2,197 bases of DNA, taken from assembly GCF_003334255.1 (NCBI RefSeq), contig NZ_QOWU01000140.1. The stretch is one strand, 5' to 3'. The notes beneath the pieces are model-generated. The model worked only from the letters and a program-made list of their open reading frames with translations, searched no databases and had not been told where the DNA came from. Numbering within the stretch: position 1 is the stretch's first letter; the number at the start of each line of letters is the position of its first letter. The DNA is from Escherichia coli. GTDB lineage: Bacteria; Pseudomonadota; Gammaproteobacteria; Enterobacterales; Enterobacteriaceae. Made by a program: the position numbers and the translations under genes. Of the stretch, positions 1 to 2,197 are shown piece after piece.

Positions 1-22
1 AGCTGATAGAAACAGAAGCCAC
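1..22 (-). CDS. insA: IS1 InsA, 5' end only (partial; CDS continues beyond window start)
   Basis: On the - strand, GTG at 22-20 followed by GCT TCT GTT TCT ATC AGC reads (M)ASVSIS, the InsA N-terminus, at the expected distance from the IRL. Confidence 0.6.
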
Positions 23-54
23 TGGAGCACCTCAAAAACACCATCATACACTAA

Positions 55-77
55 ATCAGTAAGTTGGCAGCATCACC
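55..77 (-). repeat. IS1 terminal inverted repeat (IRL, insA-proximal), 23 bp
   Basis: ATCAGTAAGTTGGCAGCATCACC at 55-77 is the reverse complement of the IS1 IRL GGTGATGCTGCCAACTTACTGAT. Confidence 0.85.
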
Positions 78-282
78 TCATGGTGATGGTAATAAAGAGC
101 ACTTTTTTACGCCCTATTCTGTCGCCCATTTTGCCGAAAATAAATGCTCCGACAATACGCGCCACATAACCTGCACCGTAGGTTCCCATTGCCAGAATTA
201 ACGCCATTGCCGTTGATGATTCAGGAAAAAATATTTCATGAAACACTAACGCTGCGCCGAGCGAATATAACTGGAAATCCAT
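73..282 (-). pseudogene. MFS transporter (metabolite:H+ symporter-like, ProP/ShiA/KgtP type) 5' fragment, truncated by IS1
   Basis: The 69-aa ORF contains the TM1 motif DFxLYS..AALVF..FFP and MFS signature G-x-x-x-D-R-x-G-R-K-K (FGKMGDRIGRKKVL) with the spacing seen in ProP/ShiA/KgtP. Native sequence stops at position 78; the last Arg codon spans the IS1 junction and the TGA stop (75-73) lies inside IS1. A protein of roughly 400+ aa is expected, so more than 80 percent is missing. Confidence 0.75.
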
Positions 283-697
283 AATTCACAGGTGTTTTTT
301 CCCATCCTGTGGTTTCCTTGGCGTTTTCTAGGTTTTTTCAGATAGTTGCATTTTTTTAAAAAGCATCCTAAGTTCGATCTCAGTGTCTATCTGGGGCCTA
401 TTTCTGTCCCATATATGCCCCAAAAAAACTCCCCAACAGATAAGTAGTTTTTTCATGGATTTATGCGTAAAATCAAGAACGGCTGGAAATCATTCAATAC
501 TCACACTATCGAAAAATTTACCAGCCAATCGCAGCACGTTCTTGCATAAGGTGTGTCTGCGGTTTTTCAACTATTCAGATACATCACTCCCATCACATTC
601 ATTCCTCCGCATCAAAGGCATATAGGCTATATCACCTTGATATTTTTCTTTTTCAGATAAAAACTGTTATCTATGTATACTTTTAAACCCAATCCGT

Positions 698-710
698 GTA
701 GAGTCTCTAC
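698..710. repeat. perfect 13-bp palindrome GTAGAG-T-CTCTAC; candidate protein-binding or recombination site
   Basis: GTAGAGTCTCTAC is exactly self-complementary about the central T. It shares a 12/13 core (CGTnTAGAGTCTC, 695-707) with the site at 1603-1615 and 17/21 matches over 687-707 versus 1595-1615. Confidence 0.4.
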
Positions 711-1055
711 ATAAGATAGTTTGCAGTTGCCGCTTCAGCTTGCGCCATAAACCGCCTGATTTTTGCTGCCACCTGTTAGCATTCCTGTATACCTGAAACG
801 ACAATGTTTATCTACGAACTTTAAGAACACCCAAGATAAAAATTGTCAACTATATCATATATAACACATTACTAATTCGAGGCTATATGAACAGCATACT
901 GATAATCACATCTCTCCTTATCATATTCAGCATTTTTAGTCATGCCCTAATAAAATTAGGGATTGGCATATCCAATAACCCAGACAAAACCGATGTATAA
1001 GTCAACATATCCTGAATCAGACATACAATATCGCAATGAAAATCAATAATATTTT

Positions 1056-1060
1056 AAGGA
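1056..1060 (+). promoter_or_regulatory. Shine-Dalgarno (AAGGA) for small ORF start at 1069
   Basis: AAGGA at 1056-1060, then an 8-nt spacer (atatcttc) before ATG 1069-1071. Confidence 0.4.
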
Positions 1061-1068
1061 ATATCTTC

Positions 1069-1302
1069 ATGAAATCAAAAGACACCCTAAAGTGGTTCCC
1101 TGCGCAGCTTCCTGAAGTAAGAATTATCCTAGGGGATGCTGTAGTGGAAGTAGCAAAACAGGGAAGACCTATCAATACCAGAACATTGCTTGATTACATT
1201 GAAGGAAACATAAAGAAAAAATCATGGCTGGATAACAAAGAATTATTACAAACAGCGATATCAGTTCTTAAAGACAACCAAAATTTAAATGGTAAAATGT
1301 AA
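1069..1302 (+). CDS. hypothetical small protein (77 aa from ATG 1069; 88 aa if upstream ATG 1036 is used)
   Basis: Open frame of 267 nt in AT-rich DNA where stops are frequent. ATG 1069 has an AAGGA Shine-Dalgarno 8 nt upstream; ATG 1036 has none. The translation has protein-like composition and is not low-complexity. No family recognised by eye. Confidence 0.45.
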   Translation: MKSKDTLKWFPAQLPEVRIILGDAVVEVAKQGRPINTRTLLDYIEGNIKKKSWLDNKELLQTAISVLKDNQNLNGKM

Positions 1303-1475
1303 TATAATAAACTTACTTTTTTATCATTTTTCCACTTTAACAACATTTTGCTCCACTTTTCCACGACCAAACAACTTGAAATCTGGTTAAAATAACACGC
1401 AACACTATTCTTCTTCCTTGAGTCCGCCCGGAACTCGAAAAACAAACCGAGTTAAAGCCATTTTTCACAAAATCG

Positions 1476-1495
1476 ATTTTGGGTCTCACCAAAAT
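1476..1495. repeat. inverted repeat ATTTTGG-gtctca-CCAAAAT
   Basis: Seven-bp perfect arms (1476-1482 and 1489-1495) around a 6-nt spacer GTCTCA, the same hexamer present in the 1603-1617 site. Confidence 0.3.
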
Positions 1496-1602
1496 TACGG
1501 GGTTGCATACGCATTCGTTTATTTTCGAACGTGTACATACAAATATGCACAAAAATAATCATAATTATTTTCTGAGATGCATTATGATATGAACACCAAT
1601 TT

Positions 1603-1617
1603 CGTATAGAGTCTCAC
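1603..1617. repeat. degenerate copy of the 698-710 site, overlapping the recombinase RBS and start codon
   Basis: CGTATAGAGTCTCAC, same orientation as the 695-707 core (offset 908 bp). It has an inner GAG-T-CTC palindrome and ends 1 nt before ATG 1619. GTCTCA recurs at 1621-1626 and 1483-1488. Confidence 0.4.
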
Positions 1618-1618
1618 T

Positions 1619-2125
1619 ATGTCTCAAATTTTTGCTTACTGTCGGATATCAACGCTGGATCAGACCACCGAAAATCAACGCCGGGAAATCGAAAGTGCAG
1701 GTTTTAAAATCAAACCTCAGCAAATAATCGAAGAACACATTAGCGGCTCAGCAGCAACCAGTGAGCGTCCTGGTTTTAACCGGTTGCTTGCTCGCCTGAA
1801 ATGTGGTGATCAATTGATTGTGACAAAACTGGATCGCCTTGGTTGTAATGCAATGGATATCAGGAAAACAGTGGAACAACTGACCGAAACAGGTATCAGA
1901 GTGCATTGCTTAGCATTGGGGGGCATTGACCTGACCAGTCCAACAGGAAAAATGATGATGCAAGTAATTTCAGCAGTCGCTGAATTTGAACGAGACCTTT
2001 TACTTGAACGCACTCATTCCGGGATAGTAAGAGCCCGCGGCGCAGGGAAACGTTTTGGTCGACCACCTGTGTTAAATGAAGAACAGAAACAGGCGGTATT
2101 CGAACGAATTAAGTCAGGTGGGTAA
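1619..2125 (+). CDS. small serine recombinase (resolvase/invertase family), C-terminus truncated by IS1; probably inactive
   Basis: 168-aa ORF. The N-terminus YCRISTLDQ matches the serine-recombinase catalytic motif (Y-x-R-x-S-T, Ser11 as nucleophile). KLDRLG and the [15 protein letters not shown]-helix align by eye with Tn3/gamma-delta resolvase, followed by a GRPP arm. The native sequence ends at 2120, after only the first helix of the C-terminal DNA-binding domain; the last Gly codon spans the IS1 junction and the TAA stop (2123-2125) is inside the IS1 IRR. Confidence 0.85.
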
Positions 2126-2143
2126 TGACTCCAACTTATTGAT
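2121..2143 (-). repeat. IS1 terminal inverted repeat (IRR), 23 bp
   Basis: GGTAATGACTCCAACTTATTGAT at 2121-2143 is the reverse complement of the IS1 IRR ATCAATAAGTTGGAGTCATTACC. Confidence 0.85.
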
Positions 2144-2197
2144 AGTGTTTTATGTTCAGATAATGCCCGATGACTTTGTCATGCAGCTCCACCGATT
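2136..2197 (-). CDS. insB: IS1 InsB (transposase) 3' end, partial; CDS continues beyond window end
   Basis: The - strand of 2136-2197 translates to ...SVELHDKVIGHYLNIKHYQ followed by TAA, the InsB C-terminus. Confidence 0.6.
   Translation of the reverse strand, partial: SVELHDKVIGHYLNIKHYQ

Follow-up and report, generated by a model that had tools for sequence, protein, structure and literature searches.

A 2,197 bp stretch of Escherichia coli DNA that both begins and ends inside the insertion sequence IS1 raises the question of what those two ends belong to. They could come from separate chromosomal copies, from the arms of a movable unit, or from one copy that closes a small circle. The stretch that we analysed (the window) is the whole of contig QOWU01000140.1 from assembly GCA_003334255.1 (L006), and it consists of a K-12 core of 2,043 bp (78-2120) between 77 nt of IS1 on one side and 77 nt on the other. 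We conclude that the window very likely derives from two lineage-specific chromosomal IS1 copies, in direct orientation, around the native end of the Qin prophage, as captured in a short-read contig.

IS1 ends and the DNA between them

We compared the two ends of the window with annotated IS1 elements and observed perfect 77-nt matches on both sides (Table 1). Both matches to L002 run plus/plus and fall on the extremities of a single 768 bp element, which is annotated on the minus strand as "IS1-like element IS1A family transposase"; we obtained the same result with the copy of IS1B in L003. The segments matched by the left end are the high-coordinate ends of these minus-strand IS1A and IS1B elements. 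Because the matches are same-strand matches to the two extremities of a minus-strand IS1, both window ends are antisense to the + strand and in direct orientation, as the initial annotation had described for the flanks of the 2,043 bp segment. Judged by sequence identity, two exact matches of 77 nt cannot have a chance origin. The 77-nt ends are identical in IS1A and IS1B, the full copies of which differ at 13 positions.

The left end carries the 23 bp IRL (55-77) and the first seven codons of insA, with a GTG start at 22-20, running leftwards off the contig. Gene calling recovered the InsA zinc-ribbon N-terminus here, also reading leftwards (a partial gene, at the equivalent place in the related contig L004 described below). 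At the right end lie the 23 bp IRR (2121-2143) and the final 19 transposase codons, which read leftwards and end at 2136; here gene calling gave a partial minus-strand gene at 2136-2197 with a DDE_Tnp_IS1 C-terminus. The two 23-nt terminal inverted repeats are complementary at 18 of 23 positions.

Between these ends, homology to K-12 extends from exactly position 78 to exactly position 2120 at 100% identity, and native K-12 diverges from the window at the same two bases (...cccca/tcatggtga and ...gtcaggtg/taagtat, where the slash marks the divergence). All 2,043 interior bases are identical to those of K-12 MG1655 and other K-12 strains. The order ydfJ', Qin boundary, ynfT, ydfK and pinQ is the native one and identifies the interior as an end of the Qin cryptic prophage (the chromosomal left end). 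Since this is the native Qin end of K-12 in its normal gene order, the interior is, by its sequence, chromosomal DNA in situ and not cargo in a new context.

Table 1. Features of the 2,197 bp window; L001 is the native K-12 locus, and L002 and L003 carry the annotated IS1 elements used for comparison.
Feature	Position	Strand	Basis
IS1 left end (IRL, insA-proximal)	1..77	-	77/77 vs L002 4016-4092 and L003 3001-3077
Nine bases adjoining IRL, TCATGGTGA	78..86		native K-12, L001 4001-4009
ydfJ' fragment, MHS-family MFS transporter pseudogene, ancestral codons 29-96	78..288	-	100% identity to K-12 ydfJ
ynfT, 37-aa small protein, YnaM/YnfT family, intact	887..1000	+	NF041477, E=1.2e-17; annotated in K-12
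ydfK, Qin cold-shock protein YdfK, 77 aa, intact	1069..1302	+	WP_000836768.1 at L001 4992-5225; Pfam YnaE
pinQ', Qin serine recombinase/invertase gene	1619..2125	+	100% identity to K-12 pinQ up to 2120
Nine bases adjoining IRR, AGTCAGGTG	2112..2120		native K-12, L001 6035-6043
IS1 right end (IRR, insB-distal)	2121..2197	-	77/77 vs L002 3325-3401 and L003 2310-2386

Two genes cut at the junctions

The initial annotation held that an MFS gene and a recombinase gene are each cut exactly at an IS1 terminus, with both stop codons supplied by IS1. The K-12 identity, which runs to the base on either side, agrees with the first point, and the reading frames agree with the second. On the left, the ydfJ open reading frame (282-73) ends ...ITM-R-TGA, with the Arg codon across the junction and the TGA at 75-73 wholly inside IS1. 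On the right, the pinQ frame ends ...KSG-G-TAA, with a Gly codon (2120-2122) spanning the junction and the TAA of IS1 at 2123-2125.

The ydfJ' fragment matched the metabolite/H+ symporter profile TIGR00883 (E=6.5e-27) at profile positions 7-74 only, and in alignments its homology to the Qin-free loci L007, L009 and L011 stops at about 288. Integration of Qin deletes the ydfJ promoter and 28 N-terminal codons (PMC6379469). The gene is therefore bounded by two separate events, Qin integration on its 5' side and IS1 on its 3' side, at 77/78. As Qin integration had killed ydfJ beforehand, the gene was already a pseudogene before IS1 arrived, and IS1 cut a pseudogene. A comparison with IS1-free K-12, from which both genes were expected to be recovered whole, did yield an intact pinQ (196 aa); however, the MFS gene ydfJ is already truncated by Qin in that strain. 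Exact-protein look-up placed the 69-aa YdfJ stub in GCA_001299315.1 and nowhere else; the 360-aa product of distal ydfJ turned up in hundreds of unrelated genomes, so it does not mark the lineage. A BLAST alignment of ydfJ that ran on into the IS1 end hinted that the target resembles IRL; when this similarity was tested empirically, p was ≈0.05 for the left junction and there was no similarity at the right one, and we treated the resemblance as chance.

Native pinQ codons 1-167 occupy 1619-2119 of the window, and the last native base is 2120. Intact K-12 PinQ comprises a Resolvase domain (PF00239; residues 4-144, E=4.5e-36) and an HTH_7 domain (residues 147-190). Residues 1-167 of the window protein equal those of K-12 PinQ, so the N-terminal Resolvase catalytic domain is present; a complete C-terminal HTH_7 is absent, as the frame ends after native residue 167. 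IS1 takes away the final 29 residues, that is, the distal half of the HTH DNA-binding domain. Having lost the DNA-recognition half of its HTH, the truncated PinQ is presumably inactive.

Recurrence in draft assemblies and IS1 traffic at the locus

The same IS1-bounded core makes up whole contigs in GCA_965136505.1 (L004; IS1 ends of 116 and 121 nt) and GCA_001299315.1 (L005; 104 and 81 nt). The piece thus occurs in two or more E. coli assemblies besides that of the window, and in at least three in all, and each of these drafts likewise stops inside IS1. Past the 77 nt present in the window, the left end is still IS1 in both L004 (to 116 nt) and L005 (to 104 nt), and the right end in L004 reaches 121 nt of IS1; against the reference element, the two L004 ends matched at 116/116 and 120/121 positions. 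We also found the exact 168-aa truncated PinQ under four protein accessions, all labelled Escherichia coli. Shigella, considered at first because it is rich in IS1, was rejected on account of these labels and of the 100% K-12-like core.

IS1 is present in multiple copies and, at 768 bp, is too long for reads to span, so contigs end inside it. When a de Bruijn assembler reaches a multi-copy repeat, it leaves symmetric repeat stubs at the contig edges. The exact 77 + 77 nt of IS1 in the window looks like an assembler k-mer overlap into a collapsed repeat, and the symmetry of the ends, rather than assembly metadata, suggests k = 77. With reads unable to span IS1, the contig would stop one k-mer length (77 nt) inside the repeat on both sides. 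The window is an ordinary outcome of IS1 insertions and the repeat-limited short-read assembly of an E. coli draft genome. Its edges demonstrate that one IS1 end abuts each side, and not two complete copies or target duplications; "bracketing" by IS1 cannot on its own separate two copies from one copy on a circle or from rearranged flanks. The lesson for method is that a short window with equal-sized pieces of a multi-copy IS at both edges is a draft contig halted in a repeat. A literature search for the assembly accessions returned nothing relevant.

We searched 5,426 complete E. coli genomes by megablast with the whole window and with each inner junction, and neither junction was present. 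The apparent "full-coverage" rows were multi-piece joins to IS1 copies elsewhere in the genome, and none was contiguous. A synthetic query for the predicted outer junctions likewise found none in these genomes, so the set offers no finished reference for the lineage. Among GTDB species-representative genomes, a degenerate pattern for an intact or IS1-interrupted pinQ site returned two E. coli records, both with pinQ intact. The predicted fusion of IS1 with the pinQ 3' end was not on record as an open reading frame by exact-protein look-up, a result that is uninformative as the gene may simply be uncalled. Absent from the complete genomes, the two inner junctions are lineage markers that could be used for strain typing.

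IS1 lands often in the ydfJ-pinQ neighbourhood: at least 12 complete genomes carry it elsewhere in ydfJ, and nine carry it 200-220 bp past the position of the pinQ cut. In strain AH62, ydfJ carries an IS1 in the same orientation, flanked by the 9-bp duplication CTAATCATC. In strain QEC11-421, IS1 lies just downstream of pinQ with no target duplication (flanks tcctgtgcag / atgaatcct); the right flank falls outside the 10-kb K-12 locus, and neighbouring Qin DNA has been lost. In E. coli it is commonplace for IS1 to insert in pseudogenes and in the genes of cryptic prophages.

Origin of the arrangement and comparison with known systems

In the reading that we favour, one IS1 copy would sit in the dead ydfJ remnant and another in codon 168 of pinQ, and we infer that each window end belongs to a different, complete IS1. 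Each copy is probably a simple insertion with a 9-bp duplication; if so, TCATGGTGA and AGTCAGGTG are the expected target-site duplications of the left and right copies, respectively. Simple insertion of the left copy predicts a junction of distal ydfJ, duplication and IRR, GGTACAGATCCCCATCATGGTGA/GGTAATGACTCC, and a contig ending ...GATCCCCATCATGGTGA/GGTAATGACTCC. For the right copy it predicts IRL, duplication and the pinQ 3' part, GGCAGCATCACC/AGTCAGGTGTAAGTATAAGTGCC, and a contig starting ...GCAGCATCACC/AGTCAGGTGTAAGTATAAG. Two direct copies would make the 2.0-kb segment deletable through homologous recombination between them. The insertions carry little biological weight, as both genes hit are dispensable, one being dead already and the other encoding the invertase of a defective prophage.

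A variant of the two-copy reading is that at least one IS1 did not arrive by simple insertion, and that an adjacent deletion, an inversion or IS1-IS1 recombination replaced its outer flank. In that case, what lies on the far side of IS1 would not be the remainder of ydfJ and/or the 3' end of pinQ, tfaQ and so on. The IS1 downstream of pinQ in QEC11-421, with its missing duplication and lost Qin DNA, provides a precedent, and the outer junctions predicted for simple insertion were found in no complete genome, nor as a called open reading frame. However, such negatives would arise in any case if no complete genome represents the lineage, and simple insertion with a 9-bp duplication is the commonest outcome for IS1, with an example in the same gene in AH62. 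We regard a rearranged flank as somewhat unlikely.

In Tn9, direct IS1 repeats flank a short segment, and the direct IS1 ends around the core of the window have the same architecture. A segment between direct copies could in principle move in the manner of Tn9, and the initial annotation had proposed that this one might move as an IS1-flanked unit. This is mechanistically possible; however, our searches lent it no support, as we found the unit in no second context among 72,556 plasmids (PLSDB) or the 5,426 complete E. coli genomes. The best PLSDB matches were either chromosomes with a wrong label or a 42-kb "plasmid" in which the genes are intact and the surroundings are those usual in the chromosome; none shows a mobilised unit. 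Furthermore, the segment keeps the ydfJ/Qin junction as it is in the chromosome, its cargo has no obvious selectable function, and two in-situ insertions make the simplest history. It is thus quite improbable that IS1-ynfT-ydfK-pinQ'-IS1 forms a composite transposon of the Tn9 kind, or a unit amplified in tandem, located elsewhere than, or besides, the Qin locus. That the block acts as a functional Tn9-like or amplifiable unit, mobilising or amplifying a prophage cold-shock gene in this lineage, is less probable still.

Lower again in probability, and very unlikely, is the suggestion that the window wraps around a small circular replicon with one IS1. A single IS1 joined to the 2,043 bp segment would give a 2,811 bp circle, either a small replicon or a product excised through IS1-IS1 recombination or intramolecular transposition, and the topology of the contig, with IRL at its left edge and a like-oriented IRR at its right edge, is one that a single closing IS1 would allow. 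However, the interior is purely K-12 chromosome and prophage. Apart from two truncated genes it contains only ynfT and ydfK; it has neither a replication initiator nor a known origin, and an Rfam search of the window found no RNA family, including no replication-control RNA. The inner 9-bp flanks differ (TCATGGTGA versus AGTCAGGTG), which on a circle would leave the one IS1 with no target duplication around it. PLSDB holds no such plasmid, and a non-replicating molecule would not recur in several independent assemblies, whereas the same linear piece is present in at least three differently assembled drafts. Least probable of all is a chimeric contig that wrongly joins IS1 ends to the Qin segment, since nothing more than the general fallibility of draft assemblies speaks for it, and against it stand base-identical junctions in at least three assemblies with differing contig sizes, therefore from different assemblers or parameters, as well as four independent protein depositions of the truncated PinQ.

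Two chromosomal IS1 copies in situ thus remain our preferred reading, and the window can be set beside several known systems on these terms. With IS1 of E. coli and Shigella (IS1A, IS1B and IS1R; 768 bp, IS1 family) it shares the termini, the imperfect 23 bp inverted repeats, the insA start and the insB' end; the reference element is the full 768 bp, with insA, insB' and a programmed -1 frameshift, whereas the window has just 77 nt per end. Composite transposons of IS1R with a Tn9-like backbone have been described (PMC8865565). Like Tn9 and Tn2670-type composites, the window has a short segment between two direct IS1 ends, but its "cargo" is native DNA in native arrangement, including the ydfJ/Qin junction, and contains no selectable gene. 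PinQ shares its Resolvase catalytic domain and HTH_7 with the serine DNA invertases Hin, Gin, Cin and Pin; unlike these, the window protein stops after residue 167 and one IS1-derived Gly. K-12 and all 5,426 complete genomes searched are without IS1 at the two positions occupied in the window, and Qin of E. coli K-12 has the same 2,043 bases, the same gene order and the same truncation of ydfJ by Qin.

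IS1 termini and the two cut genes

We compared the edges of the window with annotated 768-bp IS1 elements from two complete E. coli genomes, IS1A of strain QEC11-421 and IS1B of strain AH62, in both of which the transposase is on the minus strand. Each 77-nt edge aligned plus/plus to these elements, so both IS1 ends have the same orientation, antisense to the plus strand, as the initial annotation had proposed. Gene calls on public contigs placed the N-terminus of the InsA zinc ribbon at the left edge and, at the right, the C-terminus of the IS1 DDE domain; both lie on the minus strand. 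No Rfam family was found in the window.

Features of the window, IS1 references and related contigs (IRL and IRR, left and right terminal inverted repeats of IS1; L002 and L003, the QEC11-421 and AH62 loci)
Feature	Location or extent	Strand	Detail and basis
IS1A reference	L002 3325-4092	transposase minus	annotated
IS1B reference	L003 2310-3077	transposase minus	annotated
IS1 IRL/insA end	window 1-77	minus	77/77 to high-coordinate end of both references, plus/plus
IS1 IRR/insB end	window 2121-2197	minus	77/77 to low-coordinate end of both references, plus/plus
23-nt terminal inverted repeats of IS1	window 55-77 and 2121-2143		18/23 complementary; independent repeat finding
ydfJ			MHS-family MFS transporter pseudogene, "missing N-terminus"; K-12 annotation
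ynfT	between ydfJ and ydfK		K-12 annotation
ydfK			cold-shock protein; K-12 annotation
pinQ			recombinase; K-12 annotation
21-nt direct repeat, first copy	window 687-707		ACCCAATCCGTGTAGAGTCTC
21-nt direct repeat, second copy	window 1595-1615		ACCAATTTCGTATAGAGTCTC
Same core, whole contig of GCA_965136505.1	2,280 bp		IS1 ends 116 and 121 nt
Same core, whole contig of GCA_001299315.1	2,228 bp		IS1 ends 104 and 81 nt

The match to K-12 breaks at 77/78 and 2120/2121, confirming that the MFS gene and the recombinase gene are each cut exactly at an IS1 terminus, with both stop codons supplied by IS1. At the left site (K-12 ...gatcccca/tcatggtgatgg, slash at the junction), IS1 takes the place of the left-hand part, and the ydfJ frame reads ...ITM, a junction-spanning Arg codon and then TGA at 75-73. 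At the right site (K-12 ...aagtcaggtg/taagtataag), IS1 takes the place of the right-hand part, and the pinQ frame reads ...IKSG, with a junction-spanning Gly codon, and then TAA at 2123-2125. Intact PinQ comprises 196 aa, with Pfam Resolvase (4-144) and HTH_7 (147-190) domains; the cut follows residue 167, so that the DNA-binding domain lacks its distal half, and the truncated protein is most likely inactive.

IS1-free relatives had been expected to yield both genes intact. This held for PinQ, which is whole in K-12, but ydfJ is already a pseudogene there. Homology of the window to Qin-free genomes ends at ~288, and comparison with these genomes shows that the ancestral YdfJ began 28 codons before the Met at 282. 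PMC6379469 agrees, stating that Qin, by integrating at the 5' end of ydfJ, cost the gene its promoter and 28 N-terminal codons; ydfJ was therefore a pseudogene before IS1 arrived, and the remnant, ydfJ', is cut on both sides.

Across E. coli, ydfJ has been disrupted in many independent ways, by Qin integration, frameshift, small deletions and IS1 at several positions. The lesions seen include a shortening of the run at window 101-106 from A6 to A5, which shifts the frame, and deletions of 5 bp and of 1 nt, surveyed around 9,990-10,010 in five E. coli loci (L007, L008, L009, L011 and L015) that were found via the broken-gene product and so form a biased sample. At the left junction (window 71-92), IS1 and ydfJ together form a short palindrome, CATCACC-tcat-GGTGATG. 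Four bp from the insertion point, the ydfJ target has GGTGATG, which matches bases 1-7 of IRL but in inverted orientation to the IS1 end; GGTAAT, matching bases 1-6 of IRR, comes next. The BLAST alignment of ydfJ ran on into the IS1 end, which suggested target homology to IRL; a wider empirical test of target similarity to the IS1 ends put this at chance level on the left (p≈0.05) and found none on the right.

The interior and the Qin prophage

Positions 78-2120 (2,043 bp) match E. coli K-12 MG1655 and numerous other K-12 derivatives with 100% identity; in K-12 the gene order is ydfJ, ynfT, ydfK, pinQ, then tfaQ and tail-fibre remnants; NCBIfam and Pfam agree with these gene identities. From its sequence, we identify the interior as the left end of the Qin cryptic prophage. 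Nothing in the window is new sequence: it consists of IS1 and the K-12 Qin end, arranged in a textbook manner.

Two direct copies of a 21-nt repeat, 81% identical and 908 bp apart, lie on either side of ynfT-ydfK. The first copy lies inside a perfect 7+1+7 palindrome, TGTAGAG-T-CTCTACA, and the second stops 3 nt upstream of the pinQ start codon. The pair is native to Qin, both copies being present in K-12, and may act as a site for regulation or recombination.

Occurrence of the junctions

Neither inner junction was found as a contiguous match in 5,426 complete E. coli genomes; every full-coverage row consisted of separate pieces joined to IS1 copies at other positions. A synthetic query for the predicted outer junctions (the far sides of the two IS1 copies), which would also pick up an IS1-IS1 deletion product, gave no match at ≥80% coverage among these genomes. 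In the GTDB representative genomes the pinQ site occurred only in intact form, and PLSDB yielded no IS1-bounded version of the segment. From these searches, both insertions are specific to a small lineage.

The best PLSDB matches were chromosomes filed as plasmids and a 42-kb record with ordinary chromosomal context. The latter (NZ_CP141086.1, 42,027 bp, "plasmid unnamed2" of E. coli KE48, filed as circular and non-mobilizable) contains the ydfI–ydfJ'–ynfT–ydfK–pin–tfa–tail-fibre region of the chromosome and looks like a piece of chromosome or prophage, not a plasmid. Several multi-megabase PLSDB "plasmids" are likewise chromosomes.

IS1 has also entered this neighbourhood elsewhere, at other positions in ydfJ in at least 12 complete genomes and 200-220 bp past the pinQ cut in nine. 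In AH62 a simple insertion of the same orientation lies in ydfJ, flanked by a 9-bp duplication, CTAATCATC. QEC11-421 has IS1 132 bp downstream of pinQ; this copy lacks a duplication and abuts a truncated cold-shock gene, a sign that Qin DNA next to IS1 was deleted. Because these strains show one case each, simple insertion and adjacent deletion are both realistic for the outer flanks here. In Qin-free E. coli GCA_045608265.1, another independent IS1 lies within ydfI, the neighbour of ydfJ (L011 11,338-12,114).

Origin of the arrangement

An exact-protein look-up with the 168-aa truncated PinQ led to contig QOWU01000140.1 of GCA_003334255.1 (2,197 bp), to which the window is identical over its whole length; GenBank has this exact protein under four accessions, each assigned to Escherichia coli. 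In each of the three assemblies named here the contig ends within IS1, in the source assembly precisely 77 nt into the element at either end. Such equal ends are typical of de Bruijn-graph assembly, where a contig overlaps a collapsed repeat by the k-mer length, and 77 is a common largest k among assemblers. The bracketing by IS1 is therefore partly due to how draft assemblies end. Protein look-ups for neighbouring contigs returned non-specific matches or no record, and a literature search on the assembly accessions found nothing.

We consider it highly probable that the segment lies between two separate chromosomal IS1 copies of the same orientation, in ydfJ' and in pinQ, and that the window is the contig bounded by these repeats. 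Both copies may plausibly be simple insertions, each with its own 9-bp duplication (TCATGGTGA and AGTCAGGTG), a reading that is somewhat favoured. A 2.8-kb circle with one IS1, raised by the initial annotation, has a compatible topology; however, its interior would hold no replication function, the inner flanks are unequal, and the same piece occurs in several independent assemblies, making it very unlikely. Relocation as a composite transposon, or amplification of the unit, is improbable and has no support, and no evidence was found for the suggested mobility, the unit being absent from the complete E. coli genomes and from PLSDB. A chimeric assembly is excluded by recurrence of the piece in several independent assemblies.

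IS1 pairs in direct repeat generally allow homologous recombination to delete what lies between them and, in principle, transposition of the intervening DNA as in Tn9; both properties would apply to the 2.0-kb segment between ydfJ' and pinQ.
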